From Cytophagaceae bacterium (GTDB lineage: Bacteria > Bacteroidota > Bacteroidia > Cytophagales > Flexibacteraceae): a stretch of DNA of 64,000 bases. The translations under genes and the position numbers were made by a program. Positions 4,543 to 26,960 of this stretch are shown here, piece by piece; within the stretch, counting starts at the first letter, position 1, and the number at the start of each line of letters is the position of its first letter. Below the pieces are notes generated by a model, which made no database searches, was not told the DNA's origin, and saw only the letters and a program-made list of their open reading frames with translations. The stretch lies in contig JAIXQU010000104.1 in NCBI GenBank assembly GCA_027485575.1, positions 19,984-83,983 of the forward strand, written 5' to 3'.

Positions 4543-4557
4543 ACCTGGATTAAGAAA

Positions 4558-5169
4558 TTATCTGAATGAGGTTGAATCAAAATAGGCTTCATTAATGGTT
4601 ACCGCCCAGTCAGGTTTAATATTCATAGGCTGAATAGAAAATGGCCCTGCAATTCGCTTTTTGATTTTTTGTTTTCCTAAAAAGCACTCCATAAAAATCT
4701 CTCCTCGCATATGGGGGGAAGTGGCAGCTTTGACCTCATACTCAGCTTTTTCACCAACGGCCAGACCAACAATTTTCAGGGTATCTGGCTTTAAAAAAAT
4801 CGTCCCTGAGCCATAAATTTTAATTGAATGAATGGGTTTGAATTTATTTTCAACCTTGACTTCAATTTTGGTTCTGGCTTCATCTGTTGCCATCAGAAAG
4901 CAATAACACAGAGGTAAAAATGCCAGAATATAAGACGAGGCACTCACACCTTTCAATTCGTTTTTATCATCGTTTGCATTTTTCAGCCATCCCCACAAAA
5001 ACCAAATGACTGACAGAACCCAAATAAAAATTCCAACCACCAATAAAGGAATGGTCAAATCTTCTAAGAAATCTACTGAAAAATAAGCAATAATTGTGGC
5101 AACTGAGCACAGAAATATTGCGGTCAATGCCATCCATCTGGAAACTTTTAATAAATCCTGATTAATCAT
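4558..5169 (-). CDS. Integral membrane protein of unknown function
   Basis: Three hydrophobic helices in the first ~100 aa, followed by a beta-rich soluble C-terminus. The start overlaps the stop of the upstream gene by 4 nt (5166-5169). Confidence 0.5.
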   Translation of the reverse strand: MINQDLLKVSRWMALTAIFLCSVATIIAYFSVDFLEDLTIPLLVVGIFIWVLSVIWFLWGWLKNANDDKNELKGVSASSYILAFLPLCYCFLMATDEARTKIEVKVENKFKPIHSIKIYGSGTIFLKPDTLKIVGLAVGEKAEYEVKAATSPHMRGEIFMECFLGKQKIKKRIAGPFSIQPMNIKPDWAVTINEAYFDSTSFR

Positions 5170-5903: not shown

Positions 5904-5932
5904 ATATGTAACGAAAAATGATACGAAAAATT

Positions 5933-7159: not shown

Positions 7160-7253
7160 AGGGTGATATAAAATAAAGTGCAAGTCAAATACATTTACAT
7201 GCAAAATTAAACTTAAAATCTACAAACAAAAAACACTGTAAGATAATTTACTT

Positions 7254-8126
7254 TTAATTCCTTAAATCTTTTCCCCAAAATAGCTTTTCCCTGATTGTTT
7301 TGCCAAAAGAATAATTTGGAAAATCTACAAAGTTTGCGGCCAAATGACTTTTTTTAATCTCTAAAAACTTGTTAATCAGAATGGGTTTAGACCTTGAATC
7401 CATTGAAAACATAACTTTTTGTTGTCTTCCCTTTGGTTTAATTTTGATTTTGATTTTATCCGGTATTACCAAAGGTCGCATAGAAAGATTATGAGGACTT
7501 ACCGGAGTTAACACAACGCTTTCATTTTCAGGAACTAAAATAGGGCCGCCACAACTAAGTGAATATCCGGTAGAACCTGTGGCTGTCGAAATGATTAATC
7601 CATCTCCCCAGTAATCATTTAAAAATTCATCTTCAATAAAGGTCTCAATGGTAATCATTGAGGCAGTATCTCTTTTTGTTATCGCAATTTCATTTAAGGC
7701 AAAATTCTGAGGAAATGATATCGCTTCTTCTGAATTAGATATTTCTAATAAGGGTCGGTGGAAAATTGACATTGTTTCCTTTTGAAGAACAGATACAATC
7801 GCTTCATATTCGGTAGATTGAGCTGTTGCAAGAAATCCAAGTCTTCCAAAGTTAATTCCCAGAATTGGCACTTTTGCCGGAACGGCATATAGCAATGAAT
7901 CCAAAATTGTTCCATCACCCCCTAAACTTAAAATTGCTTTGAATGAAGATATATCCGATTCAAGATTGAAAGTTCTTGAAAAATTGGTTGTAAACTTTTC
8001 AAAAGGACGAACCAGTGATTGAGAAAAATAAACCAGAAATCCTGCCCTTTCAAGCATGTCGCTCAAGGCCAATATTTGGTCCTTGGGAATCTGATGAAAA
8101 GGCAAGGCATGAAGACCGATATTCAT
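7254..8126 (-). CDS. nadK: NAD kinase
   Basis: The GGDGT motif (LSLGGDGTILDSL) and TGSTGYSLSCGGPI are typical of NAD+ kinase, and the 290-aa length fits. Confidence 0.9.
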   Translation of the reverse strand: MNIGLHALPFHQIPKDQILALSDMLERAGFLVYFSQSLVRPFEKFTTNFSRTFNLESDISSFKAILSLGGDGTILDSLLYAVPAKVPILGINFGRLGFLATAQSTEYEAIVSVLQKETMSIFHRPLLEISNSEEAISFPQNFALNEIAITKRDTASMITIETFIEDEFLNDYWGDGLIISTATGSTGYSLSCGGPILVPENESVVLTPVSPHNLSMRPLVIPDKIKIKIKPKGRQQKVMFSMDSRSKPILINKFLEIKKSHLAANFVDFPNYSFGKTIREKLFWGKDLRN

Positions 8127-11641: not shown

Positions 11642-12580
11642 CTATTTCTGAACTACTTTTTGAAAATACTCTAAGGTCAATTTCAAACCTTCAGATCGGG
11701 AAACTTTGGGTTCCCACTGTAGTATTTCTCTGGCCTTAGTTATGTCTGGCTGACGCTGTTTTGGATCGTCTTTAGGTAAAGGCTTGTAAATCACCTTTGT
11801 TTTTGCACCGGTAAGTGCGATGATCTCTTCTGCAAATTGGTTAATTGTTATTTCTCCCGGATTTCCAATATTGACTGGAAACGGATAATCACTTAACAAT
11901 AGTCTGTAAATCCCATCAACCAAATCAGATACATAGCAAAAAGAACGTGTTTGGGTTCCATCACCAAATGCAGTTAAATCCTCTCCCCTTAAAGCTTGTC
12001 CAATGAATGCAGGCAAAACCCGGCCATCATCCAGACGCATTCTGGGACCGTATGTATTGAAGATCCTAACTATTCTGGTTTCTAAACCATGGTAGGTATG
12101 ATAGGCCATTGTTATTGCCTCCTGAAATCTTTTTGCTTCATCATAAACGCCTCTAGGACCAATAGGGTTAACATTTCCCCAATATTCCTCATTTTGCGGA
12201 TGAACCAACGGATCACCATATACCTCAGAAGTTGAGGCAATCAAGAACCTTGCATTTTTTGCTTTTGCCAGACCCAATAAATTATGCGTTCCCAATGAAC
12301 CCACTTTTAAAGTCTGAATAGGCAACTTTAAATAATCGATAGGAGAAGCGGGAGAAGCAAAATGAAGAATATAATCCAGATCTCCCGGGACATGAACAAA
12401 TTTTGACACATCATGGTGGTAAAATTCAAATTCCTTGAGATGAAATAAGTGTTCAATATTTGCAAGATTCCCGGTAATGAGGTTATCCATTGCAATTACA
12501 TGAAAACCTTCTTTCAGAAAACGGTCACACAGGTGGGAGCCAAGAAAACCAGCTCCTCCGGTAATTAGTACTTTTTTCAT
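11642..12580 (-). CDS. UDP-glucuronate decarboxylase (UDP-xylose synthase), SDR family
   Basis: [21 protein letters not shown] Rossmann motif, YDEAKR catalytic motif, 312 aa. It overlaps ugd by 4 nt. Confidence 0.85.
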
Positions 12581-13905
12581 TTTGATTTTAAGGATGAAAT
12601 GACGGGTTGGCGACCAATTGAATAATAATCAAATCCAAGTTCAGCCATTTGGTCTGGCTCAAATACATTTCTGCCGTCAAAAATCACTTTATTTTTCATT
12701 AATTTTTCAATCTTTTCGAACTCAGGGGTTCTAAACTCCGGCCATTCTGTGACAACCAAAAGTGCATCTGCACCATCAATGGTGTCATAAAGGTCTGAAC
12801 CAAAAGAAATTTTGTTTCCAAAAATCTTTTCCACATTTGCCTGAGCCTCTGGGTCATACGCTTTTATTACAGCACCTTCTATCAAAAGAGCTGTAATGTT
12901 TTCTAACGCAGGTGCTTCACGGATGTCATCGGTATAGGGTTTAAAAGCAAGTCCCCAAACGGCAATTTTTTTACCAGATAGGTCACCTTTAAAATAGGCC
13001 TTTATAGCCGGCAACATCTTTGTTTTTTGCTGTTGGTTCACACTCATTACTGATTTCAGAATTTTGAATTCATAGTCAAAATCTGAAGAGGTTCTTGCCA
13101 GGGCTTGAACATCTTTTGGAAAACAACTTCCACCGTAACCAATTCCGGCAAATAAAAATCTTTTTCCAATTCTGCTGTCTGAGCCAATACCTCTTCTAAC
13201 TTCATCCACATTTGCTCCAACCCTTTCACAAAGATTGGCAATTTCATTCATGAAAGTAATTTTGGTCGCCAGAAAAGCATTTGCCGCATATTTGGTCAAT
13301 TCGGCTGAACGCTCATCCATAAACATCACCGGATTGCCTTGTCTGACCAAAGGGGCATAAAGTCTTTCCATGATTTTCTTTGCTCTTTCAGAAGTAGTAC
13401 CAATAACCACTCTATCTGGCTTCATAAAATCTTCAACTGCAACACCTTCCCTTAAAAATTCAGGATTGGAAACTACATCAAAATCAACTTTGGCATTTTT
13501 TGCAATATTGGCATGAACCAACTCCGCAGTGCCAACAGGGACTGTAGACTTGTCAACAATCACCGCATATTGGCTCAAAATTGGGCCTAAATCTGTTGCC
13601 ACACCTAGTATGTAACTTAAATCTGCAGAGCCATCCTCGCCCGGAGGAGTTGGAAGGGCAAGGAAAATTATACTGGCGTCCTGAATTCCTTCCTTGAGGT
13701 TGGTAGTGAAGGTTAGTCTTCCCTGGTGAATATTTCTATCAAAAAGAACATCCAAACCCGGTTCAAATATTGGAATTACGCCGTTTTTGAGACTTTTAAC
13801 CTTTTCTTCATTTATATCTATGCAGGTCACAGAATTACCTGTTTCTGCAAAGCAAGTACCGGTTACCAAACCTACATAACCTGTTCCTACTACAGCAATT
13901 TTCAT
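12577..13905 (-). CDS. ugd: UDP-glucose 6-dehydrogenase
   Basis: [17 protein letters not shown]-terminus, GGSCFPKD catalytic Cys motif, 442 aa. Confidence 0.9.
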
Positions 13906-14042
13906 TTTTTTATTCTTCTGAATTGAGAATGCAAAACTGCTTCAAAAATTGAATGGATAAAACCTAAATTAAAATATTATTTAAGAATGACTGTTAATTG
14001 TGGGATTAAGCAGACATTTGCGGTTAAATACTGGCCCAATCT

Positions 14043-14822
14043 GTGAAATTTCTTTCATACTTTTCAATTCAAGCCCTGGTTTTAATCTCTGTTATTTCTT
14101 TGGCAAATGCTCAGGAAAATAAAGAATCGAAAGGAAAAATTGATAAACGCTGCCTCATTTTTAATGGCTTTACAGGTTTATCTGTTCCTGGCAATGACCT
14201 GGTAAAGGATTATGGAACTTTCGGAGAAATTGGTGGTGGAGTGATGTTTCAAAGCAAATCCAAATGGCTGTTTGGTTTGGATTTTTCTTACTTTTTTGGG
14301 AATGGGGTAAAAAAAGACCCTGTGGCCAATCTTCGGAATGAAGAAGGACAAATCATTGGAAATAATGGTAGTTACGCCACCTTCAAGGTTTTCCAACGTG
14401 GCTTTCAATTTCCCCATCTAAAATTTGGAAGGACCTTTGCCCTAAGAAAAAATCCAATTCAGAATTCATTTGGTGGGCTAACCTTAATTTCCGGAATTGG
14501 CTGGTTTCAACACTGGACCTACATACAAGACCTAAGTAAAAAAACACCTCAGTTTTCAAAAGATTATATCAATGGATATGACAGAATGACCAATGGGCCT
14601 AGTGTTGGTTTTTGGGTCGGATATCTTTTTATTCCCAATCGGTCAAAAATCAACTTTCATTTGGAAGGAGGATATTTTGCCAGTTTTACAAAAACAAAAA
14701 GGTATGATTTCGCAAACAACTTTCTGCCCATTGAAAAAAGGGTTGATTCCATGGTACAATTAAGGCTGAGAATTTGCTTCACCGTTCGTTCAAAAGCAGA
14801 AGAAGAATATTATTACTATTAA
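14043..14822 (+). CDS. Secreted/outer-membrane protein of unknown function
   Basis: GTG start, signal peptide ending LANAQ, and a beta-rich, aromatic-rich sequence. I recognise no family. Confidence 0.5.
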   Translation: MKFLSYFSIQALVLISVISLANAQENKESKGKIDKRCLIFNGFTGLSVPGNDLVKDYGTFGEIGGGVMFQSKSKWLFGLDFSYFFGNGVKKDPVANLRNEEGQIIGNNGSYATFKVFQRGFQFPHLKFGRTFALRKNPIQNSFGGLTLISGIGWFQHWTYIQDLSKKTPQFSKDYINGYDRMTNGPSVGFWVGYLFIPNRSKINFHLEGGYFASFTKTKRYDFANNFLPIEKRVDSMVQLRLRICFTVRSKAEEEYYYY

Positions 14823-15395: not shown

Positions 15396-15406
15396 AAGTA
15401 TAAAAG

Positions 15407-15423
15407 AAGCCAATTGGGCTTTT
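15407..15423. terminator. Hairpin between convergent genes (ppa and the NHL lipoprotein gene)
   Basis: gaagccaattgggcttt forms a short GC-containing stem followed by a T-rich tract on the plus strand. Confidence 0.45.
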
Positions 15424-15489: not shown

Positions 15490-16692
15490 TTACTGCTCGT
15501 AATCCGAAGTCAGTTTATACCGCATGATTCTCTTATTTCCGGCATCGGCTACATAAAGAATCTGGTCAAAAAAGGCAATTGCACTTGGCCTGATAAATTG
15601 AGTCGGGCCAGAACCTGTTCCTCCAAAACTCACATTAATTAGTTTGCGGTTGGTATTTTGGGCGGGAGGTATGGCTCCTTCATATCCATTTTCCTGAAAC
15701 ACAAATATGCTGTCACTACCCGCATCTGCTACAAAAATATACTTCTGACTAGTTCCGCCATAATGAACAGCCACAGGCTTTTTGAACCTGAATGTTTCAT
15801 AAAGCGCTCCATCAGCTTCACTTTTAGAAGGAAATGAGAGAGGCTTAAAATTGGTAACAAGCCCTTCCGGTGTGAGCAAAACCTCCATATATCTTACAGA
15901 AATTCCTAAATCTTCCGTAATCGATGTGTAGATAAAATCCTTTCGGGCTTCCATTCTTAATCTTTGTGGAGGCTGAACAAGGGTTGTCAATCCAATCGGA
16001 GAAATAGATTTAATTGGATCTCCTTCTGTAAAACCGCCTTGAAATTGATCTTTCTGATTAAAGGTTAAAACTGAATTTCGTCGGGTTATAAAAACCTTGG
16101 TTTCCTGAGGACCACTGGAAGAAACATAATAAGAGTTGTTATCCATAAACCCAATGGCATGAAAATTTGTTAACCGCAATGCTTCAGGCTCATTTAGTTT
16201 GGATGTTTCATTGATGCAAAAAGGATAAATCAGCTTTTTAGTTATTATCGCATCATTCAAACTAATTTGTTGGGTAACACCCTCACCTCCAGATCCTTTT
16301 TGACTTATTTTATAAATTACAGGTAAATTGTATGTCAGTGATTTAATGATCGTATCCATCCGCCCAATTGCATAAAGATCCAGACTCCTGTTTTGAATCA
16401 CAAATGTCACCCCTGGCAAATTGAACTTCCCCAATTGTTTACCAGCTGCATCAAAACTAAGGATAGCACTTCCTGAATCAACAGCATACAACAACTGGTC
16501 GTAACCAAAGTACAGGCTTACTGGCGTTATCTGAGAACCAAAAGCAGGTAAAACAGGAACGTACTCAACACTTCTTAAACTGTAATCCGGTTTTTCAATA
16601 TAGTCTTCAACCTTATTTTTCTCTCCAAAAAAAGAGCATCCCCAGGAAATGGATAGCACTAAAATAATAGATAATCTTATTCCTATTTTCAT
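15490..16692 (-). CDS. NHL-repeat beta-propeller lipoprotein (last gene of the envelope operon)
   Basis: Lipoprotein signal LSISWGC. NHL-like repeats (YAVDSGSAILSFD, FVADAGSDSIFVF, LYVADAGNKRIMRYKL). The start overlaps the upstream stop by 4 nt. Confidence 0.7.
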   Translation of the reverse strand: MKIGIRLSIILVLSISWGCSFFGEKNKVEDYIEKPDYSLRSVEYVPVLPAFGSQITPVSLYFGYDQLLYAVDSGSAILSFDAAGKQLGKFNLPGVTFVIQNRSLDLYAIGRMDTIIKSLTYNLPVIYKISQKGSGGEGVTQQISLNDAIITKKLIYPFCINETSKLNEPEALRLTNFHAIGFMDNNSYYVSSSGPQETKVFITRRNSVLTFNQKDQFQGGFTEGDPIKSISPIGLTTLVQPPQRLRMEARKDFIYTSITEDLGISVRYMEVLLTPEGLVTNFKPLSFPSKSEADGALYETFRFKKPVAVHYGGTSQKYIFVADAGSDSIFVFQENGYEGAIPPAQNTNRKLINVSFGGTGSGPTQFIRPSAIAFFDQILYVADAGNKRIMRYKLTSDYEQ

Positions 16693-17696
16693 TGTCCTAT
16701 TTTTTGAAAACCTAATGTTAAACCAAACAAAAACTGCCAGCCAAGATTGGTTGTTGGCAATGAGGTGGCTTCAATAATAAGTGGAAAAGCACCTATCCGG
16801 GACCTGACACCGAACCCAAAGGAAAAAAATTCTCCAGGAACATTAATCCTGACACCCGACCTCACAAAAATCAAGCTATCGGTTTCAAATTCCATTCCAA
16901 TCCTGATGTTCTCAGCATTGTCGTTGGGGTGATTCAATTGGCTTGAAATGGTAAATTTGTCCCCATTTTTTTTGTATGGAACAATAGATACTCCCATTGA
17001 AAACAAAGTAGGTGCGCCATATCCATCCTTGGGAACTCCGTCCTTCCGATTGTAAAGGATGGGTAAATCAGAACCGGAGACTGTAGAATTGGCACCAAAA
17101 TGCTGCAAACCGACTGCAAAAGAAAGGTCCTTCCAATCTGTTTTGTATAAAAATCCTAAATCCACAGAAAGAGCATGGGCAGAGTATTGGGCCAATTGCT
17201 CACGGATAAAATTGACATTGGCACCAAAACTAAACATTTTGGAAAGTGCTTTGGAATATCCCAAACCTAATTTTAAGGCATCAGAACTATATTGAGTTCC
17301 ATCTCCAAAAGGCTGAAATTCGGTTCTTCTTTTTTGGCTTCCAGAACTTAAATAGTTCAAGGAAAACATATAGGCTGCTTTATTTTGAGTTGGATAAATA
17401 CCGCCCAAAAAAGTTTGATACAATCCTGCAGGCAATTTTCTTGAAGATAAAGAAACCACAGGGAACGAATTACCCGCACCTCCCGCAGGATTTACAAGAC
17501 TTGAAAATCCGTCTCCTTGCAATGCTATGCTTGCCCCTCCCATTCCCACTGACCTGGGCGAAAGATCGTTTTTTAAGAAAGGCATCGCTGAAATTCCAGC
17601 CCTTTGCCCCCCAAGGTTTGGGAAAACCTGTGCAAAAAGGTCAGAAAATGAAAACAGGCAAATTTGAAAAACGACTATGAATACTTTTTTCAACAT
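16689..17696 (-). CDS. PorV/PorQ-family outer-membrane beta-barrel
   Basis: Signal peptide ending DLFAQ. N-terminal signature GGQRAGISAMPFLKNDLSPRSVGMGGASIAL...NPAG matches the conserved PorV/PorQ (LptO-like) motif as I remember it. The rest is beta-barrel-like. Confidence 0.65.
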   Translation of the reverse strand: MLKKVFIVVFQICLFSFSDLFAQVFPNLGGQRAGISAMPFLKNDLSPRSVGMGGASIALQGDGFSSLVNPAGGAGNSFPVVSLSSRKLPAGLYQTFLGGIYPTQNKAAYMFSLNYLSSGSQKRRTEFQPFGDGTQYSSDALKLGLGYSKALSKMFSFGANVNFIREQLAQYSAHALSVDLGFLYKTDWKDLSFAVGLQHFGANSTVSGSDLPILYNRKDGVPKDGYGAPTLFSMGVSIVPYKKNGDKFTISSQLNHPNDNAENIRIGMEFETDSLIFVRSGVRINVPGEFFSFGFGVRSRIGAFPLIIEATSLPTTNLGWQFLFGLTLGFQKIGQ

Positions 17697-17702
17697 ATCT
17701 TT

Positions 17703-20549
17703 CTAGAAATTAAAGCCAATTCCATATAAAAATTGCCTTGGTTGAAGAAATCTGGCAGGATTGGAAGGTGGCAATCCTGATGTATTCGGGTCCGTATACC
17801 TTGGATCTCTGGATTCAAATGGCAAGGGGTCGCCATCCCGGTAGGCCCTTCCGGTTACCGGATTTACCAACTGGGCATTCTTATTATTGAAAATATTCTT
17901 TATCTCAAAAGATAAATAAGCCCTTAGTTTTCTTGTAAAATAAATATCCCTTGAAATACTTAAATCCGTCCAAAACCAGGAAGAACCTATTTCTTTAAAT
18001 TGACTGTTTGGTTTAAGTTCATAAATAGTCCGGCCTAAATCATTTTGTCCTGCAGCCTGATAGGGTGTATATCGAAGTCCTGATTTCCAGGTCGTAAAGA
18101 CAAAGAACCGGAATTTTTTCAATGGAACTCCCCAAAGTACTGCATTTGAGTCCGGAGTATAAATCAAAGAACCCTTTAAATCGAAAGGTCGGTCCCAGGC
18201 GAGATACTGCTCTTTGGTCGTATTAACCTGACCAGTCTGGCGAATTTGGAGCAATGATTCTTTTGCTGTATTGGACTTTCCTGTAGCTACCTGATAACCT
18301 GCATTAAAACTGGCCCTGATTTCTTTTGAAAATCTGTAGTTTAAACCAATTTCAACGCCCCGAACCCTGGCATAATCCTGATTGATACTAATGACCCTAT
18401 CCACGAATTCCTGCCCAAGTCTGGGGTCAATAATCTCTGCAGTTCTGTTTACAATGAAATCAAATTGGTCCTTATAAAAAGCAGTAAGTGTTAAAGAAAA
18501 ATCTCTTGTAATCTGCGATTTAACACCTAATTCGTATGAAACGGCTACTTCTGGATTTAGGTTTGGATTACCCGCGTTGGCCCCGGAAACACGGTTTTGA
18601 TAATTGGTATCCAGGCCAGCATATAAGAATCTTGGGTGAGGTAACCGTAAAGAATGCCCATAATTGAAGTACAACACATTGTTTTCAGTTACAGGAAAAG
18701 AAACCCTCACTTTGGGCAAAAACCTGGCTTTCCACCTTAACCCAAAAATTTCTGCAGTCTGCTTTTTATACTCATCTCTGTTGGATTGCGCAATAAAGGT
18801 GTATGGATTATCAATCGCTTTATCTGCAAATTTTCCTGGTGCCCAATATTCAAAACGAGCCCCAATAACAGCAATAATGCCCTTATATTTTATTTCGTCC
18901 TGGGCAAAGATTGCTCCGTTATGTGGTTTCACTGCCCAGACATCGTTGGATTGACCAATCCTGCTGGAAGGTGTAAATGACCCATCATTCAATTGGATCG
19001 GTGCTCCAACCCACGGACGGCTCACATCAATCCATTGCATATTTTGGTATTTATGCTCCATTCCCATTGAGGCAAAATGGATTCTGTCATCTGACAAATA
19101 GGTGAACTTTCCTTTGAAAGTAAACTCCTCGTAAAAGTGGTCATGCCACAAAGTAGAAATACCTCCATTGTTGTTAAAACCTTCGCTTGGCAATACATAA
19201 AGCACAGAATCAGAAGCACTTCTGGGGTCATCATAAATGGTAACCGGATCTGTGATTATGGCATCAGGGTCATATACTTTATTTACACTTTTATCTCTAA
19301 AAGGTCTTCCATTGGCATCTGCCCGAAGGCGTGTAAAAAGCCTTCCAACCGTTGCATCAAGTTTCCACTTTTTGTTCAAACTGTGTCTGACATTTAAAGC
19401 CGATAGATTTGACCGGTGCGTATATGTTGTTGCATTGTCCATCTCTCTGGAAAATGCATATTGGAAACCAGGAACCATAATTTGGTCAAAACCAATAATC
19501 TGAAGCGTTCGCGTATTTTGGTTTATGGCAACACTATGTTGGTTTGTAATTGAAATTTTGGTGCCGGAACCCAGGTTATAAGCCATCTTAAATGTATGGC
19601 TCCATTTATTATCCTGTCTTGGTGCCCAAAAAGAATTGTTATCCATTAAACTCGAATTGAGCTGATTGGCATAAAATCTAAAATAATCACTTGTAAATCC
19701 TATGTTGGCAGAAGTAAAAAGGGTTAGTTTTTTATTTGTACCCGGGATGGGGGTACCAATGGAAATTTCAGCCAAATCCGTATTCCATGCGTTTCCAGAT
19801 AACTTATTGAAGCCCAGATTATCTCTCTGCCACCTCCCTCCTACTGTGAACCTATCTGAACCCTCCTTTATTTTTGTTACAATGGTTCCCGAATTTGAAT
19901 TGTATTCAGCGTCACTTCCTCCTGTCATTACGGTAATGTCCTGAACAGAACCAGAGGCAACCTCTGTTCCGAAACCGGTACCCGCCAAGGGATCGGATGC
20001 ATTAATCCCATCTACCAGATATTGGGTTTCATATACCCTGCCGCCCCGGATTTGCAAACCATCAGGAGATTGACTAACCCCGGCTTGCATGGCAGCAACG
20101 TCCTGAACATTTCTAACATTCATTTCCTTGATGTCCCCCGCCGAAATTCTTATCTCACTTTTTCCACTTTCAAGGTCAACAGTCGGTTTTTCGCCAATTA
20201 TTTCAACACTTTCAAGGTCATTGGCTTGCTCTTCAAGACTTGTGCTTAGAGTTACTGTTGTTCCGTTTCCAATTCGTATTCCGTTGAAGACCTTTTCTTT
20301 ATAGCCCACATAACTCACGCGTATGCTGTAATCACCCGGTTTTATTCCGGTAATGGAATACTTTCCATTAAAATCTGTGGATGCTCCTTTGTATGTTCCA
20401 ATCAATAAGACTGTGGCTCCAATTAGTCCTTCTTTGGTTGATTTATCGGCAATTACGCCTGACAGAGTCCCTTGAGCAAAAAGTTTTGAAGTTAAACTTA
20501 GAAAAAACAGACATCTAAAAAACACTGAACTACCAGTTAAAATCTTCAT
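17703..20549 (-). CDS. TonB-dependent receptor with N-terminal CarboxypepD_reg-like domain
   Basis: 948 aa with a signal peptide ending KLFAQ. It has a CarboxypepD_reg-like beta-sandwich (GTLSGVIADKSTKEGLIGATVLL...GKYSITGIKPGDYSIRVSYVGY) and a plug region (IRGGRVYETQYLVDGINASDP). A long barrel ends in the aromatic terminal residue (...YGIGFNF). Confidence 0.85.
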   Translation of the reverse strand: MKILTGSSVFFRCLFFLSLTSKLFAQGTLSGVIADKSTKEGLIGATVLLIGTYKGASTDFNGKYSITGIKPGDYSIRVSYVGYKEKVFNGIRIGNGTTVTLSTSLEEQANDLESVEIIGEKPTVDLESGKSEIRISAGDIKEMNVRNVQDVAAMQAGVSQSPDGLQIRGGRVYETQYLVDGINASDPLAGTGFGTEVASGSVQDITVMTGGSDAEYNSNSGTIVTKIKEGSDRFTVGGRWQRDNLGFNKLSGNAWNTDLAEISIGTPIPGTNKKLTLFTSANIGFTSDYFRFYANQLNSSLMDNNSFWAPRQDNKWSHTFKMAYNLGSGTKISITNQHSVAINQNTRTLQIIGFDQIMVPGFQYAFSREMDNATTYTHRSNLSALNVRHSLNKKWKLDATVGRLFTRLRADANGRPFRDKSVNKVYDPDAIITDPVTIYDDPRSASDSVLYVLPSEGFNNNGGISTLWHDHFYEEFTFKGKFTYLSDDRIHFASMGMEHKYQNMQWIDVSRPWVGAPIQLNDGSFTPSSRIGQSNDVWAVKPHNGAIFAQDEIKYKGIIAVIGARFEYWAPGKFADKAIDNPYTFIAQSNRDEYKKQTAEIFGLRWKARFLPKVRVSFPVTENNVLYFNYGHSLRLPHPRFLYAGLDTNYQNRVSGANAGNPNLNPEVAVSYELGVKSQITRDFSLTLTAFYKDQFDFIVNRTAEIIDPRLGQEFVDRVISINQDYARVRGVEIGLNYRFSKEIRASFNAGYQVATGKSNTAKESLLQIRQTGQVNTTKEQYLAWDRPFDLKGSLIYTPDSNAVLWGVPLKKFRFFVFTTWKSGLRYTPYQAAGQNDLGRTIYELKPNSQFKEIGSSWFWTDLSISRDIYFTRKLRAYLSFEIKNIFNNKNAQLVNPVTGRAYRDGDPLPFESRDPRYTDPNTSGLPPSNPARFLQPRQFLYGIGFNF

Positions 20550-22071
20550 TCAAAATTTTGTTAAATGTATTTTGTAATGCCGGCCTGTCTCCACTTAAAT
20601 AGGTCATTTCAACTGTAAAAAAGGCTAGATTCATTCTTCCATTATATAGGTTAAATGCCCTTGTGGCTATTGGCAAGGCAGGCCCAGTATAATTTGCAAT
20701 ACTGGTAACCGGTAACAAATACAAAGTATCCGCACCTTGTCTGGGAAAAAACAAATCCAATCCAGAGATTAGATGGACTGTGGTTTTCAAATCAAAATAA
20801 CCACTTTGGCGTGCAAGAACAGGTACGTTTCTCCTTAACCGGGCTGTTACAGAAAGTGGAGAGATCCTTTCAATGGGAACCAAAGAGAAAATGGGGTCAT
20901 CAACTGCCAGTTGACTATTCCCATCAGGGAAAATGACAGATGCAAGAAGCTTACCATCAAACCTCAGATATTGAATAAATGCAGGTGCCGCTGTGGTTAA
21001 GAGCAAAGGAATTTCTCCGGGTTTAGTTCCATAAATGTCTGAGTACCAAAATATCTTCTTATACAATTTGCACATCAGATAAAAAGATGCATTCCAGAAT
21101 TTTGGTTGATTGGTGTCCCCTCTACTTACCAGATCTATCTTATCAAAACTTGTTATGTTTTTTAACATTCCGGTATACAATGAGTCTCCAATAAATGCCC
21201 CCTCTCCTTTGTAAGCATCAATTAAAAGTAAATCAGAGGTCTTTCTTGTAAAGAAATAAGACTTTGAAGTTGAATCTATACTGGAAGAACCTGCAAAATC
21301 TTTAATCCTGAGATAAAATCTATTGAGGCCATCCAACTTTAAGCCACTTGCCGAAAGATTGGGTATAGGTGTTGGTTCTTTGTTTAATCCTGCAAGGTTT
21401 TCGCCTGCATAAAAAACAACATCAGATTCCGGCGCATCGGGATTTTTAGGTACGATTGAAAAAAAAGTCAGGTTTTTAGGCAAACCCACCCAGGCTGAAT
21501 TGTTACACCTGAAGAATACGGAATCAATATTTGAAAATCCATCCGGATCAGAAAAAGTGATTGGAAATGACATCGTTGACCAAATGGTGTCAGCCAAAAC
21601 CAAACCATCGGCAATAAAGGAAATAACCGGCCTGGAATTTTTTACAGGAATTTTCAAATATCCTGGAGATTGACTTACCGCACCTTTGTTATCAACCGCC
21701 TGAACAAAGAAATGAATACTGGCGGTATCAGCCGCTCCGGAAAAACTAAAAAGAAATGTGCTGTCTGTCCTGTTAACAACAGGTGACAAATTCAAACGAT
21801 CTAAAGCTTCAGAAGGATTTGTACTCCACCCGATTTTATATCCATTGATATATCCATCTGCATCGATACCAATCCAGTTAAGCTTTACCTGGGTAAACAA
21901 CCTCAACGAATCAGGCAGACCAATGGAATCTATGGAAATTCTAACCAAAGGGGACTCATTCAAAACCAAACTTGTTTTTTCCTCTGTGCACGAAGAAAAA
22001 CTTAAAATAAAGCCAAGCCACACCAAAAGGTGCGGCTTAAGCTTATTTATCAAATTATTGTCTGGCTTCAA
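20530..22071 (-). CDS. Lipoprotein of unknown function (envelope operon)
   Basis: Lipobox LSFSSC. N-terminal FN3/Ig-like segments (KLNWIGIDADGYINGYKIGWS). I recognise no enzymatic motif. The 3' end overlaps the receptor start by 20 nt. Confidence 0.6.
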   Translation of the reverse strand: MKPDNNLINKLKPHLLVWLGFILSFSSCTEEKTSLVLNESPLVRISIDSIGLPDSLRLFTQVKLNWIGIDADGYINGYKIGWSTNPSEALDRLNLSPVVNRTDSTFLFSFSGAADTASIHFFVQAVDNKGAVSQSPGYLKIPVKNSRPVISFIADGLVLADTIWSTMSFPITFSDPDGFSNIDSVFFRCNNSAWVGLPKNLTFFSIVPKNPDAPESDVVFYAGENLAGLNKEPTPIPNLSASGLKLDGLNRFYLRIKDFAGSSSIDSTSKSYFFTRKTSDLLLIDAYKGEGAFIGDSLYTGMLKNITSFDKIDLVSRGDTNQPKFWNASFYLMCKLYKKIFWYSDIYGTKPGEIPLLLTTAAPAFIQYLRFDGKLLASVIFPDGNSQLAVDDPIFSLVPIERISPLSVTARLRRNVPVLARQSGYFDLKTTVHLISGLDLFFPRQGADTLYLLPVTSIANYTGPALPIATRAFNLYNGRMNLAFFTVEMTYLSGDRPALQNTFNKILNEDFNW

Positions 22072-22086
22072 AAGCTTGTGATTTTT

Positions 22087-24246
22087 CTACTTTTGAATCA
22101 GGAGATTGCGAACTCCAATAAGTTTTTTGGAAGGTTCAGAAACCCTTACCTGATATAAACCATTAACCAATTTGTCAATGGCAATGGTATTATCTTTTCC
22201 ATTTACAGTAGTGCTCAATACCTTTTGACCTTTGGCATTGAAAATCTCCACGTTTGAAGTGGAAGAAGCTTCAATTTTAATATGCAAGGTTTCCTTTGCC
22301 GGATTTGGGAAAAGACCAAACTGATTATTTCCTGTAAGTTCCCTGGTGCTCAGGATAAGGAGGGTGATATCTAAATCATTTCTTGGAAGTAACTTCATAT
22401 TTCCAAAACTGTAAGTCATAACACCCTGAATAAATGTAACTTCAGATCCTGGCAATACAATTTCTGCCGGAACATTCATTTGGCCATCCTGGGTAAACCA
22501 CCTTGGTGAATTTACATAACGAACATTTAAAGAGCTGAAAGTATTGGAATTCTGTCTTCCTGCTAAAACACGGCAACCGGTATTTGGGTCATTCACATCA
22601 GCGCCAATTCTATACTCGCCATTATTTCTGTTCGTGGCGGCATCTGCATTGGAATCTACAACAAATAAATTCTGACCAGCAACCGGATTTTTTAGCTTCA
22701 CCAGCATTCCTTCATATTGCTCATTTTGACTGGCTCCGGTGGCGCTATATGTTGTAAACAAAGCCGGGTCAAGCTCTAAGGGGGCTGGCACTGGTTGACC
22801 TGAAGCTACAACTGCGGAATTTGTGATGTTCGAAATCCTGGTCAATCCAAAGCTTTCTTCCACTACACCTGTGATATTTACCTGGTCTCCAATGGATAAA
22901 CCTGAAATAAGCGTTCCTCCATTTACCCAAATACCTCCCCATGAAGTTAGTCCAGGTTGTTGCATGTGCACATAACCTAAGTTTCCATTAACCTGAGAAG
23001 TTACTATTCCCTGAACAACCACAGTATCACCAACATATCCGGATCTTCCATTGGTAAAGGGGGTGAACTGAATGTCTTTAATTGTACAACCATCAGAATT
23101 AACCACATAAAATAAAGGGTTAATATTTCCAGGAACGTTCGGCTGAACAGTAGTGTTATTTAAATTGTCTTTAGCCCGAACATAATATCGGACTGTAGTT
23201 CCATTCGCTTGAGCTGGAATTTGAGCAGAGTATCTGGTTCCTAACGCAGTAGCATTAACAGGCGTATACGATGTTCCATTGGTTGAGTATAAAAATTCAA
23301 CGGAAGAAACAGAACCGTCATCAGTTACATCCGCAGAAATATTGATGGCATCGGCAGGCAAAGGGCAAGACTTACTCTTCTTAATATTTCCAATGGCTGG
23401 GGATGAGGCACCTTTTACATAGTGAGTCAGACTAAAAGGATTCATATTATAACCTCGGTTTGTAGCTGCAGTTCCTGCACAAATATTTTTCCAACCTTCT
23501 ATAATCCCCTTGACAGAGGTATATGAATCTCCAACATTTGGCGGAACAAATCCGGCGGAAATCCTTTGTGTCTTAAATCGGTCATAGATCCAGATATGGT
23601 TGTTATTGGCATCTTTCACTAGGATTCTACATCTGTCAGCCACATTAAGATCAACCGATACAACCGTTACATTCTGGATTTCAACAAAATTGCCTTCGTA
23701 TTTTTCACCGGTTAAAATGTTATTTGAAGGTTGATTGTTGACATTAAGATTTCCATTAAGCTCTCCTACACCTACAAGGACAGGCAATGGCGCCGGACCT
23801 GCATCCTCACTAATGATAAAAACCCCATTCGGAATTGGGTTAAGTTGTGTTTCTCCATTTCCATTTGACCCTTGGTTAAACTCTGACACGGTTCCAATTA
23901 CTTCTATGGTATCACCTGCTATTAATGTGTTGATATCCGTAGGTGAAGTAATTCCTGAAGCACGAACAGTGATGTTTCCAAAAGGGGTTGAAGCCGTGGC
24001 AGTTACATCTCTTATCCAAATCCAACGGGTACTTCCTGTGGTTTCATTTAATCCACCGGGCGTAATAACTACACCTTTAACACGAACCGTATCATTGAGA
24101 TAGACTGGATTAGGTCCATCATTACATGAATCTGGTTGAAACTGGCCAGCCCATCCCTGTATATTTTGGATTGGAACAATTGGCAATTGAGCCCATGCCA
24201 TAAAAGGCAAAAAAAGGCTAGAAAATAAAGCTAAACGTAATTTCAT
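22087..24246 (-). CDS. Large surface protein with duplicated OB-like modules and a T9SS type-A C-terminal sorting domain
   Basis: The start is taken at MKLRLALFSSLFLPFMAWAQ (internal Met), which removes the overlap with the upstream gene. The C-terminus FPNPAKETLHIKIE...NGLYQVRVSEPSKKLIGVRNLLIQK is a classic T9SS CTD. Confidence 0.75.
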   Translation of the reverse strand: MKLRLALFSSLFLPFMAWAQLPIVPIQNIQGWAGQFQPDSCNDGPNPVYLNDTVRVKGVVITPGGLNETTGSTRWIWIRDVTATASTPFGNITVRASGITSPTDINTLIAGDTIEVIGTVSEFNQGSNGNGETQLNPIPNGVFIISEDAGPAPLPVLVGVGELNGNLNVNNQPSNNILTGEKYEGNFVEIQNVTVVSVDLNVADRCRILVKDANNNHIWIYDRFKTQRISAGFVPPNVGDSYTSVKGIIEGWKNICAGTAATNRGYNMNPFSLTHYVKGASSPAIGNIKKSKSCPLPADAINISADVTDDGSVSSVEFLYSTNGTSYTPVNATALGTRYSAQIPAQANGTTVRYYVRAKDNLNNTTVQPNVPGNINPLFYVVNSDGCTIKDIQFTPFTNGRSGYVGDTVVVQGIVTSQVNGNLGYVHMQQPGLTSWGGIWVNGGTLISGLSIGDQVNITGVVEESFGLTRISNITNSAVVASGQPVPAPLELDPALFTTYSATGASQNEQYEGMLVKLKNPVAGQNLFVVDSNADAATNRNNGEYRIGADVNDPNTGCRVLAGRQNSNTFSSLNVRYVNSPRWFTQDGQMNVPAEIVLPGSEVTFIQGVMTYSFGNMKLLPRNDLDITLLILSTRELTGNNQFGLFPNPAKETLHIKIEASSTSNVEIFNAKGQKVLSTTVNGKDNTIAIDKLVNGLYQVRVSEPSKKLIGVRNLLIQK

Positions 24247-24253
24247 CTTTGTT

Positions 24254-26461
24254 CTATTTGATGATTGTGAATTTTCCTGTTTGAATTTTTCCTGTTTTAT
24301 AATCTTTAACTGAAAACAAATATAGCCCACGGCTTATGATTTGAGAATCTTTACTTAATAAATTCCAGTCATGCTCTCCACCAGAGAAAACACGCTTATC
24401 CGGATTTAAAGGGTCTTGAGAAAAAGTACTGTATGTTTTAAACCAGCTTTCTGAGCCCTGGTAGGTGGAGGCATCATGCGTAAATTCATCAATTAAGTCC
24501 CCGGCAGCTGAAAAAATCTTAATGTCACATCTGGCCGGAAGATTTGCAAAATACAATTTTCCATCCTCAGGTTTGGTACTGGAACCTGACCAGGCTGACC
24601 CTGAATAATAGGGATCCGGGTAAACGAATGGAGGATTATCCTCTATATCAGGATTGGGAGTCGTTCCGGGAAAAACCATAAATTGGTTGGTTTTCAAAGC
24701 CGTTTCCAATGGGCCCAGGTTGTTTTTATTTGAACCTCTGTCAAATGCAGTTAATGCGATAACATGCTGCCAGCCATTTTGAACTTTTGGAAATGAAAAC
24801 TTGTATTTGTATTCAATATTGGAATCCGGAAAAATTGTATCCTTCTTTAGTTTTACGACTGAAAAACCGCTATTGAATCCAACAGTATTTCCTGTTTTAT
24901 CCCACTCTCCTACCAACTTCAATGAGTTTTGTAAATCAATGGTTGGCTTTGTATCAAAAGCAAATTCTGATTTGTACAATTTATATCCTTCAAAATCTTT
25001 TTCTTTTGAAATGGGATCAATTGAGTTTTCAGAATTATCGGACCAATAAACATCAATGGAGTTAGACCCGGCAATCACTTTGGTATTGGGGACATCCGGA
25101 GGACTTGGCAGTATGTACCGGTCCAAAATAGAATCTCCGTTAAGATCTTCTTCAATTGACAAAATTCCGTCCCCGTTTAAATCCTCACCATTAAAAGCCG
25201 TTTGAGCCCAAAGCCCGTTGGCAAATAGGTTTCTTTGTTGTATGGCTGAATTTTCGGTATTGGGAAGATTCTCTTCATTGTCCTTTTTTGCACAAATAAG
25301 CGCAAATGCCACATTGACTGATTCCCCCGGGGCTAAAGTCTGCAAACTTCCACAGGAAAGAACATTGGTTCGGTTTCCGGGTGCTTTAATTATCTTTTGG
25401 GTAGACTGAATTGGCGGCTGTGCATCCCAAACATCTTCATATTGAAGTCCGGTAGCCATCCTTCCAAATCTTTCGGGGTCGTTAGGTGGGGGAAAAAACT
25501 TAGGATCAGAACTTCCAAATAACCAGGTCTGGAAATTCACTTTGAATCTTGAGTTTTTCTTTTTTCCCGGTACTATTATAAGGCCCTTACCTTTTTTATC
25601 AAATTTTTCAGCCCCTAAAAACTTAATTCCAACATAGCTTTCTGTAAATCCAGGATCGCCAGTAGCATCAAAAACATAACCCATCCGCAATGAATCCAGA
25701 TAGCCATTTCCCCCTTTATTAAAGAATGCTGTACCTGAAGGAGTTACCCGGCTAACATTTCTAACAACGGCATTGTAGTATTGGCCAACATGCAAACTAT
25801 CAAGTGTATCTACTCCGGTATTTGTAATCCGGTAATTCAGGATTACAAAAAAATTGGCAAATGAAAAGTTCCAATTATAGGTTTCCAACTTAACATTAAG
25901 CCCCAAGGGGTTGGTATGGTCCGGGATGGTTCTTGGCGGATTTCCTGAACCAGGAATGAAGATGTTTTTGTCAGTAAATTCAGTTGAAAAATCCTGATGC
26001 GAGATTGCATTGGATTGAAAAGTTTGGTTCTGAGGCAGACTGGACTTTTCCGAAATACCCGGACTTACAGAGGTGAATTCAAAATTTCTGGAACCGGCTG
26101 AATAACCACTTGGAGCATCAAAAGCTGCCGTAGATACATAAGGACCGAATAAATTTTTAACCAGAACAGAATCAACTCCCCCAGGCGTTGGATTGAGCAC
26201 TTTTCGCCGGCTGGATTTGTAAGCACCAACCCACAGCCCACCTTGAAACATATGCTCAATGGAAGAGCCCACCGGATACTCACAACTGGGATAGTTTTTT
26301 TGGGTATAACTGCCCCTGAAAGCATTTCCAATTAAACCGAGGTTATTAATGGTCAGACCTACATTTGCCTGGGTAGTTACCCGCTCATCCAGTATTTGGC
26401 CTTTACCAACACTGGCAATAAAAACAAATATGAAAATAATTAAGTAAACGCGTTTCGGCAT
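24254..26461 (-). CDS. Large secreted protein with tandem Ca-binding-type loops and a T9SS-CTD/FlgD-Ig-like tail (first gene of the envelope operon)
   Basis: The start is taken at MPKRVYLIIFIFVFIASVGKGQ. It contains DLNGDGILSIEEDLNGDSILD (two DxNxDG loops). The C-terminus reads YFANLPARCDIKIFSAAGDLIDEF...SRGLYLFSVKDYKTGKIQTGKFTIIK. Confidence 0.7.
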   Translation of the reverse strand: MPKRVYLIIFIFVFIASVGKGQILDERVTTQANVGLTINNLGLIGNAFRGSYTQKNYPSCEYPVGSSIEHMFQGGLWVGAYKSSRRKVLNPTPGGVDSVLVKNLFGPYVSTAAFDAPSGYSAGSRNFEFTSVSPGISEKSSLPQNQTFQSNAISHQDFSTEFTDKNIFIPGSGNPPRTIPDHTNPLGLNVKLETYNWNFSFANFFVILNYRITNTGVDTLDSLHVGQYYNAVVRNVSRVTPSGTAFFNKGGNGYLDSLRMGYVFDATGDPGFTESYVGIKFLGAEKFDKKGKGLIIVPGKKKNSRFKVNFQTWLFGSSDPKFFPPPNDPERFGRMATGLQYEDVWDAQPPIQSTQKIIKAPGNRTNVLSCGSLQTLAPGESVNVAFALICAKKDNEENLPNTENSAIQQRNLFANGLWAQTAFNGEDLNGDGILSIEEDLNGDSILDRYILPSPPDVPNTKVIAGSNSIDVYWSDNSENSIDPISKEKDFEGYKLYKSEFAFDTKPTIDLQNSLKLVGEWDKTGNTVGFNSGFSVVKLKKDTIFPDSNIEYKYKFSFPKVQNGWQHVIALTAFDRGSNKNNLGPLETALKTNQFMVFPGTTPNPDIEDNPPFVYPDPYYSGSAWSGSSTKPEDGKLYFANLPARCDIKIFSAAGDLIDEFTHDASTYQGSESWFKTYSTFSQDPLNPDKRVFSGGEHDWNLLSKDSQIISRGLYLFSVKDYKTGKIQTGKFTIIK

Positions 26462-26662
26462 TGCGGTGCAAGTTGGCAAAATTGCCTGTAAGGTTTTGTT
26501 ACAGTTCTATTATTTTTCAAAAACATTTACAGTCTTCCAAATCAAAAGAAAGTTTGAAAATATTTGAATATCAATTGGTTAATTGTATTAAATTGGAGAA
26601 AAACACCGAATACTATTTGGAAAATATTTTTCATTTATTCGTTAGGCTCTTTAACTTTTCTC

Positions 26663-26926
26663 CTAAATGGATGCAAATGCGATCATAACCTTGTTTTCGT
26701 CTTCAGTAAGAATCTCAAATATTTTGAATTTACCGGTTCTTCCAGCTTTCAAAGCAATTTGGGATTAAGGAATTTTCAGGTAATTGAACAAAACCCTTTG
26801 AACGCCCAGGTTCGCTTTGCCGTTTACTGCTGGCTCTGGTACCCTTATCCAAATTTGTCCATTTGAAGTTTTCCCTATGGAATCGTTGATAGAATTAGGT
26901 TTTACCAATATTGAGACAAAAGTCAT
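26663..26926 (-). pseudogene. DUF167 (YggU) family gene interrupted by one in-frame TAA
   Basis: My minus-strand translation is MTFVSILVKPNSINDSIGKTSNGQIWIRVPEPAVNGKANLGVQRVLFNYLKIP*SQIALKAGRTGKFKIFEILTEDENKVMIAFASI*. It matches the YggU pattern (V.P.a..d.i......l.i.v.ApPvdGkAN..l..fL.....v.KS.v.i..G...r.K...i). The TAA at 26765-26767 sits where the family has Lys. Confidence 0.6.
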
Positions 26927-26936
26927 ACACAAAAAA

Positions 26937-26960
26937 AAATCCCACATTGCTGCGGGATTT
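26937..26960 (-). terminator. Rho-independent terminator downstream of rpmB
   Basis: On the minus strand, aaatcccgcagcaatgtgggattt forms a hairpin that is followed by a run of nine T. Confidence 0.65.

Follow-up and report, generated by a model that had tools for sequence, protein, structure and literature searches.

A conserved six-gene operon of Bacteroidota encoding a TonB-dependent transporter, a PorV/PorQ-family barrel and type IX secretion cargo, with a possible role in capture of extracellular nucleic acid

Bacteroidota handle many extracellular polymers with sets of exported proteins encoded side by side. Here we describe an operon of six genes at positions 15490–26461 of a 64,000-nucleotide stretch of DNA from a Cytophagaceae bacterium (assembly GCA_027485575.1, contig JAIXQU010000104.1, positions 19,984 to 83,983 of the forward strand), hereafter the window. 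The genes lie on the minus strand and are named p6 to p1 in the order of transcription (Table 1). They encode an exported protein of a family that escapes the domain databases, a type IX secretion system (T9SS) cargo protein, a lipoprotein, a TonB-dependent transporter, an outer-membrane barrel of the PorV/PorQ family and a second lipoprotein with an NHL propeller. The operon is real, previously uncharacterized and conserved in hundreds of Bacteroidota species. We propose that it may encode a T9SS-assembled, TonB-energized outer-membrane machine that captures and imports a polymer from outside the cell, with DNA or RNA as the most likely substrate, a reading to which we give a probability of roughly 45%.

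Organization of the operon and export of its products

The table of open reading frames (ORFs) and their translations put the five junctions, from p6 to p1, at 7, 15, −20, 6 and −4 nt. A mechanical ORF finder runs p6 up to 26479 and p5 up to 24330. We retained the ATG starts at 26461 and 24246 chosen in a first-pass annotation of the same DNA, because they result in proper signal peptides. All six products carry an export signal. Four have sites for signal peptidase I (SPI) with Gln at +1 (…GKGQ, …AWAQ, …LFAQ and again …LFAQ), and two have lipoboxes, FSSC in p4 and SWGC in p1, whose Cys is found in 49 p4 and 29 p1 orthologs.

The first-pass annotation had drawn the same outline, and most of it holds. 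The six minus-strand frames with these spacings, the four SPI sites and two lipoboxes, the TonB-dependent barrel, the PorV/PorQ-type barrel, the NHL protein and the lack of SusD, glycoside hydrolase and regulator are all borne out by the translations and the scans with profile hidden Markov models (HMMs) given below. Its description of two of the products as "giant" has to be dropped, given their lengths of only 719 and 735 aa.

The transporter p3 and the lipoprotein p4

Three HMMs find their domains in p3 above threshold: a carboxypeptidase-regulatory-like N-terminal domain (CarbopepD_reg_2, E 4e-19), a plug (E 1e-7; 32.4 bits vs a cutoff of 23.9) and a barrel (TonB_dep_Rec_b-barrel, E 6e-30; 106 bits vs 27). 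A stretch resembling a TonB box, ESVEIIG, follows the N-terminal domain in the sequence. By this domain content p3 is a TonB-dependent transporter. Its subfamily is another matter, as p3 falls far below every subfamily cutoff in NCBIfam; the SusC/RagA model TIGR04056 gives 58.6 bits vs 368 and covers the N-terminus only. No sequence in the PDB matches p3 at E up to 0.001. The orthologs are 49–83% identical, making p3 the most conserved gene of the six. A receptor for siderophores, heme or zinc was considered and rejected, the corresponding matches being weak, partial and far under their cutoffs, and metal-related neighbors being absent.

The lipoprotein p4 is composed of the lipobox FSSC followed by TEEK, two immunoglobulin (Ig)/FN3-like domains and a C-terminal alpha/beta domain that ends in …FNW. 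An acidic residue lies within four residues after the lipobox Cys in 40 of the 49 orthologs. Neither Pfam nor NCBIfam returns a match for 39 members of the family, and among PDB sequences, too, p4 has no match. Its AlphaFold2 (AF2) model, with a mean predicted local distance difference test (pLDDT) value of 86, consists of a pair of Ig-like domains plus a head of alpha/beta type. Foldseek aligns this model with Ig-tandem adhesins, with chain 8aa2_G of the levan utilisome and with SGBP-B, a surface glycan-binding protein (SGBP) of a mixed-linkage-glucan locus (6e57_D). We therefore describe p4 as a predicted lipoprotein with an Ig-like stalk, whose modeled overall fold resembles the surface glycan-binding proteins of utilisomes.

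All p4 C-termini inspected end in …(E/Y/A)F(N/D)W (window positions 20530–20541), despite identities of 27–35% elsewhere in the protein. This terminal motif may serve for docking to the transporter.

Neither p4 nor p1 matches SusD, and the p4 model is beta-rich with an alpha/beta part, not the helical SusD fold. In scans with Pfam and NCBIfam, glycoside hydrolases, lyases, esterases, SusD and regulators were absent from the window operon, and the called genes with Pfam matches of twelve related operons included none of these classes either. A classical polysaccharide utilization locus (PUL) was accordingly rejected, since the operon is without a SusC-type score, SusD, carbohydrate-active enzyme (CAZyme) and regulator alike.

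The barrel p2 and the propeller lipoprotein p1

Besides PorV and PorQ, Bacteroidota have several further paralogs of the PorV/PorQ family. The family model PorV_fam (NF033709) gives p2 128.2 bits vs a cutoff of 90 and matches 24 of 24 p2 orthologs, with PorQ as the next-best E-value and PorV weaker. The equivalog models stay under their cutoffs: 76.4 vs 220 for PorQ, 43.6 vs 250 for PorV (models NF033711 and NF033710, respectively) and 17 vs 325 for PorV2. On these scores we rejected the housekeeping PorV or PorQ as an identity for p2. The profile of the orthologs matches the structure of Flavobacterium johnsoniae PorV (6h3i_F) with E 4e-15, and the orthologs are named "PorV/PorQ family protein" at NCBI. 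By its HMM profile p2 is a third paralog class of the family, nearer PorQ than PorV.

In p1, the lipobox SWGC precedes a six-bladed beta-propeller of NHL repeats. NHL matches all 27 p1 orthologs (best E 1e-9) and DUF5128 five of them, and among PDB structures the p1 profile finds NHL propellers such as that of TRIM71 (E 1e-19). A motif C-E-x-F-F-G-x-K at and after the lipobox Cys is conserved.

The T9SS cargo p5 and its OB-fold modules

From its N-terminus, p5 is made up of a signal peptide, a first oligonucleotide/oligosaccharide-binding (OB) fold module, an Ig domain, a second OB-fold module and a C-terminal sorting domain. The latter is a T9SS C-terminal domain (CTD) of type A, with 47.1 bits vs a cutoff of 27 for Por_Secre_tail (PF18962) and 42.7 vs 23 for TIGR04183, and is matched in 27 of 27 orthologs. 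With this CTD, p5 is a genuine T9SS type-A cargo as far as profile matches can tell. The CTD is at the same time the least conserved region of p5 (0.35–0.38).

The two modules, about 240 residues each, are duplicates of each other (hhalign E 2e-18). Residues 411–623, in the second module, match the N-terminal part of the ExeM/NucH nucleases (NF033681, E 1e-14; ExeM, E 7e-6). The match to the ExeM/NucH model covers positions 1–212 of 546 only, with 54 bits vs a cutoff of 300, and the endonuclease/exonuclease/phosphatase (EEP) domain is absent from p5. Among the 27 orthologs, a nucleic-acid-binding OB-fold is matched by 23, tRNA_anti-like by 14, DUF4131 by four and DUF5689 by three (best E 3.5e-6). 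The p5 profile also touches the N-terminus of an EEP-domain protein of solved structure, 9sf8 (E 7e-4).

One sub-lineage has an extra lipoprotein of 284–295 aa between p5 and p4 (L018:14291-15145 and L023:14326-15213), for which Pfam gives no match.

The fold and the divergent C-terminus of p6

An SPI signal with Gln at +1, an N-terminal beta-supersandwich, a D/N-rich stretch resembling a calcium loop, an FN3 domain and a CTD-like C-terminal domain make up p6. Neither the window protein nor any of 60 family members has a match in Pfam or NCBIfam, and the family profile finds nothing among PDB sequences at E up to 1. The family is large and comprises 1,593 representative clusters (50% identity, E up to 0.001). 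A total of 1,451 homologs were scored; all of those with a name in the source database, among the 120 listed, are called "hypothetical protein".

With the AF2 model of p6 (pLDDT 83) as query, Foldseek aligns the N-terminal part with the P1 domain of YidC and with N-domains from GH94 and GH116 enzymes, and the following part with FN3; a terminal beta-sandwich comes after FN3. The E-values for the N-domains of GH94, GH116 and ExoMA2 range from 4.5e-8 to 2.8e-6. Apart from FN3, the matches are thus confined to N-domains without catalytic function from glycoside hydrolases and phosphorylases, and p6 as an enzyme was rejected. The family has many invariant His, Asp and Glu residues, which a non-enzyme reading leaves unexplained.

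The first-pass annotation had counted both p5 and p6 as T9SS-tailed. This stands for p5, which passes the CTD models; p6 fails every one of them, with matches to the Pfam and NCBIfam CTD models in 0 of 60 family members, and is CTD-like by profile–profile comparison alone. In this comparison, the last 136 residues of p6 can be aligned to two CTD profiles, that of p5 and that of p7, a protein encoded beside related operons and described below, at hhalign P 5e-6 to 1e-5, whereas five control domain pairs gave P 0.03–0.55 and a positive control 3e-17. The alignment to type-A CTDs runs through all three motif blocks (YPNP; I-x-I-Y-x-x-x-G; G-x-Y-x-x-x-V … K), with two insertions. The C-terminal domain is also the best-conserved region of p6 (majority fraction 0.70–0.79). 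Moreover, p6 proved modular in an exhaustive search, and five proteins with its N-domain in other architectures all have a canonical T9SS CTD at their end. Taken together, the profile alignment, the conservation of the domain and the canonical CTDs of the N-domain's partners suggest that the C-terminus of p6 is a divergent CTD. In view of its conservation, this domain is probably retained, not cleaved.

A paralogous family of 630–730 aa (such as P0322, P0329, P0336, P0343 and P0363) shares only the FN3 and CTD-like module of p6, residues about 447–735. Its members have another N-terminus, for which Pfam gives no match.

Conservation and modularity across Bacteroidota

Relatives of p6 are present in at least 553 species genomes. 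The nearest, with 69–73% identity in p6, come from metagenome-assembled genomes (MAGs) of freshwater Catalimonadaceae/Cytophagales. For the comparison of gene order we took 54 distinct loci, each with a downstream flank of 9.3 kb or more, from Cytophagales, Flavobacteriales and other Bacteroidota. The order p6-p5-p4-p3-p2-p1 is complete in 37 of them, with tight or overlapping junctions, in line with the view of the first-pass annotation that the six genes belong together. In distant genomes the identity to the window proteins is about 45–50% for p6, 30–40% for p5, 27–35% for p4, 49–56% for p3, 37–48% for p2 and 32–39% for p1. The six-gene order thus recurs in dozens of distant genomes, beyond chance.

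Over the loci, the junctions have medians of −1 to 48 nt, and the ORFs overlap in 56% of cases at p4/p3 and in 64% at p2/p1. These short junctions and frequent overlaps suggest two sub-modules, p4-p3 and p2-p1, as the most tightly coupled parts. Twelve of the 54 loci hold p6-p5-p4 alone and continue with unrelated genes (Table 1), and a few hold less; in L090, a p7-p6 pair alone remains.

The pattern bears on two readings in which an import machine is not the point of the locus. In the first, the locus would be nothing but a conserved neighborhood of independent outer-membrane proteins, co-regulated only. It could appeal to the separability of the two halves, to the strong hairpin at the p5/p4 boundary of the window lineage, to the housekeeping genes on both flanks and to the fact that interaction among the products rests on inference. 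Yet the order is kept at 27–55% identity over several orders of Bacteroidota, and so are the overlaps and short gaps, from which functional coupling is to be expected; in addition, all products share one compartment. We consider such mere co-regulation very unlikely.

In the second, the locus would be an accessory or sorting module of the T9SS, with p2 and p1 as a dedicated shuttle or anchor for the neighboring cargo, comparable to PorQ-PorZ or PorP/SprF, and with the transporter as a structural neighbor or merely co-regulated. In its favor, p2 is a bona fide barrel of the PorV/PorQ family encoded together with two or three CTD-bearing proteins, the CTD-like domain of p6 is conserved in the way of a retained CTD, and cognate barrel–cargo gene pairs are an established theme of the T9SS (PMC10202324). 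The gene order fits this less well. The neighbors of p2 are p3 and p1, not the cargo genes, and the twelve split loci hold p6-p5-p4 without an adjacent p2. Furthermore, p3 is the most conserved of the six and overlaps p4, which argues that import is central, and the canonical PorV and PorQ are already needed in every strain. A sorting module in which import is secondary appears clearly unlikely to us.

Nuclease genes beside related operons

Directly 5′ of p6, 34 of the 71 loci with upstream flank carry a further gene, p7, at a median gap of 2 nt. Its product has the EEP fold with every catalytic residue invariant; Exo_endo_phos is matched in 17 and Por_Secre_tail in 19 of 22 proteins. Judged by these matches, p7 is a T9SS-tailed enzyme of the EEP nuclease fold. 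Given that ExeM/NucH unites an OB region and an EEP domain in one protein, p7 and p5 look like ExeM/NucH split into two T9SS cargos.

Another nuclease fold is found in two loci. In L085, a Flavobacteriales MAG without p7 (on the same contig as L054), a gene for Endonuclease_1 with a CTD lies at 12218–14479, 11 nt after p1 (E 2e-32). In L091, a MAG without an upstream EEP gene, a gene for Endonuclease_1 with three LTD-like repeats and a CTD lies at 3751–7371, 2.6 kb upstream. Searching the flanks with HMMs built here returned p7 in its fixed position only, and Endonuclease I in these two loci. We regard the association with an alternative nuclease as suggestive, not statistically strong.

In some close relatives, the gene just upstream of p6 codes for a protein of 931–986 aa that carries a T9SS CTD and matches CARDB weakly, below threshold (Table 1).

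Comparison with known systems

The literature search found no description of a locus of this composition, nor of a PorV-family barrel beside a TonB-dependent transporter, in agreement with the first-pass annotation, which could name no characterized system. On PorV-like barrels beside TonB receptors, T9SS nucleases in uptake and DUF5689, the search yielded only the reports of DNA uptake cited below, a paper on BAM and a review of the T9SS. Several known systems share parts of the operon.

The closest in outline is ddbABCDEF of Bacteroides thetaiotaomicron, reported in 2025 (PMC12478041). It encodes the TonB-dependent DdbC, the DUF5689 protein DdbD, a predicted DNA-binder, and secreted nucleases. 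Without the locus exogenous DNA is not depleted, and it is related to a transporter/DUF5689 pair of Riemerella anatipestifer (PMC12478041). Like the present operon, ddb has six genes, all for exported products, a TonB-dependent transporter without SusD, and the logic of a PUL without CAZymes. Both have a partner of OB type, DdbD being a DUF5689 protein and DUF5689 being matched by some p5 orthologs, not by p5 of the window. Secreted nucleases are likewise common to ddb and to about half of the relatives of the present operon, whereas the window operon has none. The Ddb proteins are exported through SPI or signal peptidase II and anchored by lipid, and PMC12478041 makes no mention of a T9SS part. 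Ddb has no PorV/PorQ barrel, NHL lipoprotein or member of the p6 or p4 family. In addition, the OB-fold protein p5 is a T9SS cargo encoded two genes from the barrel, whereas DdbD is a lipoprotein encoded next to it.

In R. anatipestifer, the transporter RA0C_RS04915, carboxypeptidase-regulatory-like, and the surface DUF5689 protein RA0C_RS04920 are needed for DNA uptake in transformation (PMC8459023). The likeness is in an outer-membrane transporter of the carboxypeptidase-regulatory-like class and in the DUF5689 surface protein, a domain matched here in 3 of 27 p5 orthologs. The Riemerella system differs in being a two-gene core with a neighboring nuclease; a PorV-like barrel and T9SS cargo are not described for it (PMC8459023).

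PULs of the SusC/SusD type and their utilisomes, such as that for levan (8aa2), also combine in one operon a TonB transporter with surface-binding lipoproteins and enzymes, and p4 is SGBP-like. They differ from the present operon in that p3 is not SusC/RagA, SusD and CAZymes are missing, there is no hybrid two-component or extracytoplasmic function (ECF) regulator, and surface parts are predicted to be delivered by the T9SS.

Pairs of barrel and cargo are known from the T9SS itself. According to a review, cognate PorV-like barrels are proposed to hold uncleaved CTDs, with PorQ-PorZ, PorV-PorU and PorP/SprF with type-B cargo as the cases (PMC10202324). Here, too, CTD-bearing proteins share a locus with a barrel of the PorV family, and the CTD-like domain of p6 is conserved as would be expected if it were retained in this manner. 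By HMM, however, p2 is neither PorV, PorQ nor PorP, and p6 is unrelated to PorZ and PorU. The position of p2 between a TonB transporter and a lipoprotein is an arrangement not mentioned in the passages of that review consulted (PMC10202324) or in the papers that the literature search returned.

A last likeness is to the extracellular nucleases ExeM/NucH (NF033681, NF033680), whose N-terminal OB region resembles the p5 module and whose EEP fold is that of p7 in related loci. In these nucleases the parts are fused, while here they are on separate proteins; p5 holds the module twice, without a catalytic domain, and has a CTD for sorting by the T9SS. ExeM is sorted by a C-terminal signal of its own, the ExeM type. 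On the whole, we read the operon as a variant of the TonB-dependent loci for polymer utilization or DNA uptake, set apart by a proposed coupling to the T9SS and a PorQ-like barrel and by the large unannotated families of p6 and p4.

Proposed function

The gene content enables us to propose a putative model for a machine that captures and imports nucleic acid. Initially, p5 and p6, together with p7 or Endonuclease I where these are encoded, would be exported across the outer membrane by the T9SS. The ordinary CTD of p5 would be processed and the protein displayed or released as a normal cargo, its OB modules binding nucleic acid. In contrast, p6 would keep its CTD-like domain and dock on the PorQ-like p2, as PorZ does on PorQ and PorU on PorV, which would place it beside the transporter. 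This pairing of p6 with p2 is suggested by the conservation of the CTD-like domain and by the precedents. Nucleases, encoded in the operon or elsewhere, would cut the polymer. Finally, the p4-p3 pair would import the fragments with TonB energy, in a manner analogous to SusD/SusC and DdbD/DdbC, with p1 as an accessory propeller. The imported nucleic acid could be a nutrient or a substrate of natural transformation, either being possible.

A number of findings weigh against nucleic acid as the substrate or against a single machine. All 27 orthologs of p5 have acidic OB modules (pI 4.05–5.2), which is unusual for non-specific DNA binding. The OB-fold Pfam matches of p5 are mostly under the gathering scores, and p5 of the window gives no match to DUF5689 even at E 10. 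With DdbC and RA0C_RS04915, p3 shares the class of its N-domain, and it is at most a candidate ortholog of these transporters. No nuclease gene lies in or beside the operon in the window or its closest relatives, and the cluster encodes no periplasmic nuclease, nucleotidase or inner-membrane transporter. Endonuclease I was met at two among about 88 loci. A rough estimate, in which each genome is assumed to hold one or two genes of this kind, puts the chance expectation below 1, so that the excess over chance is small. The EEP fold also covers phosphatases and lipid phosphodiesterases. The N-domain of p6 and the architecture of p4 resemble carbohydrate-associated modules, and twelve loci have p6-p5-p4 apart from the transporter trio.

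Several of these points would suit the same machine acting on a substrate other than nucleic acid, such as a glycan, a glycoconjugate or another polymer. Binding would then fall to the p6 beta-supersandwich and the p4 head, the OB folds would bind oligosaccharide, and p7 would act, as a phosphodiesterase, on a phosphate-linked polymer of the teichoic-acid-like or phosphoglycan kind. The resemblance of the p6 N-domain to those of GH94, GH116 and ExoMA2, that of p4 to the lipoproteins that bind glycan at the surface in the systems for levan and mixed-linkage glucan, the acidity of the OB modules, the lack of a nuclease in the window lineage and the breadth of the EEP fold all speak for such a substrate. 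However, the TM-scores behind the glycan-related folds of p6 and p4 are low, at 0.2–0.3, and reflect generic beta-sandwich architecture. Glycoside hydrolases, lyases, esterases, SusD and sugar-responsive regulators are lacking from the window operon and from the genes called, with their Pfam matches, in the twelve related operons, the sole enzymes recurrently attached are of two unrelated nuclease folds, and the matches of p5 are specifically to OB families that are nuclease-associated or nucleic-acid-binding. We thus hold a non-nucleic-acid substrate to be rather unlikely and retain capture and import of DNA or RNA as the preferred function.

The first-pass annotation had read the operon as a self-contained surface module in which T9SS-delivered proteins are coupled to a TonB-energized barrel. 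It described the gene content fairly. As an interpretation it is partly supported, as the second CTD fails the HMMs, the module is separable in twelve loci and the coupling of the parts is inferred; it had also missed the clues to the substrate, namely the OB/ExeM-like modules of p5 and the nucleases attached elsewhere, as well as the relatives in Bacteroides and Riemerella.

The position of p2 is fixed between transporter and lipoprotein in hundreds of species, which suggests a role in docking cargo at an import site. A bolder version of the proposal would have the PorQ-like barrel tether T9SS-delivered proteins to the TonB-dependent transporter through a retained, specialized CTD, as a new class of "utilisome", and would make this utilisome the main apparatus by which free-living Cytophagales and Flavobacteriales capture and import DNA, as a nutrient and possibly for natural transformation. 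We offer this version as speculative and doubtful.

To our knowledge, DNA uptake systems of Bacteroidota have been characterized only in gut Bacteroides and in Riemerella, and these are lipoprotein-based. DNA uptake by environmental Bacteroidota, abundant degraders of dissolved organic matter, is largely unexplained and becomes testable at one locus. For p6 and p4, two large families without a sequence match in the databases, the analysis supplies a structural description and a genomic setting. Should the assignment of the substrate be true, the operon would be a marker of nucleic-acid turnover in freshwater and marine metagenomes.

Boundaries, flanks and RNA features

Downstream, the operon ends at a hairpin facing the convergent ppa, which the first-pass annotation had noted and which we located between the two genes; it is likely a bidirectional terminator that closes the operon. 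Upstream, the stretch of about 200 bp without a gene, beyond which a DUF167 relic had been reported, measures 201 nt and is presumed from its sequence and position to be the promoter region. The relic is interrupted by an in-frame TAA. It is 40% identical to an intact gene of 100 aa in the relative L087 (9586–9888), so that the window copy is a pseudogene or a sequencing error. L087, itself 70% identical, shares the order rpmB-DUF167-p6. Housekeeping genes flank the operon in the window, namely ppa, rpmB, groEL, sucAB and the gene for UDP-glucose dehydrogenase, and the G+C content is flat over the whole window.

Table 1. Coordinates of the operon genes and associated features (window positions unless a related locus is named).
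Feature	Position	Strand	Description
p6	24254-26461	-	735-aa exported protein
p5	22087-24246	-	719-aa T9SS type-A cargo (predicted)
p4	20530-22071	-	513-aa lipoprotein
p3	17703-20549	-	948-aa TonB-dependent transporter (predicted)
p2	16689-17696	-	335-aa PorV/PorQ-family outer-membrane barrel (predicted)
p1	15490-16692	-	400-aa NHL-propeller lipoprotein
Hairpin between the p1 end and convergent ppa	15405-15423	both	terminator-like matches on both strands
Non-coding leader 5′ of p6	26462-26662	-	201 nt; presumed promoter region (sequence and terminator scan)
rpmB terminator	26963-26934	-	upstream of the leader (terminator scan)
DUF167 (PF02594) relic	about 26663-26941	-	between rpmB and the operon; in-frame TAA at 26767-26765
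RNA hairpin inside the p4 ORF, within its first 60 nt	22013-22040	-	terminator-like match; 12-bp stem, UUUU loop, U-rich tail
CARDB-like genes with CTD	L005:7053-9848; L010:3118-5913; L004:2672-5632		absent from the window
Loci with p6-p5-p4 followed by unrelated housekeeping genes			L036, L038, L039, L041, L043, L052, L058, L059, L060, L089, L091

Within the operon, the hairpin at the start of p4 is unusually stable: a segment of 96 nt around it folds at −27.8 kcal/mol (z −3.4), and none of 200 shuffled sequences is equally stable. Distant relatives have no hairpin at the p4 start. Five close relatives (L087, L006, L007, L009 and L010) have one at the same position, with stems of 10–17 bp that differ in sequence, and it is kept also where the peptide encoded there is not the same. 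The element may act as an attenuator within the operon or serve mRNA processing or stability.

Outside the operon, an ORF of 259 aa at 14043–14822 on the plus strand lies between the UDP-glucose dehydrogenase gene and ppa. Its product has a signal peptide (…SLANAQ) and the C-terminus YYYY, and may be a small outer-membrane protein.

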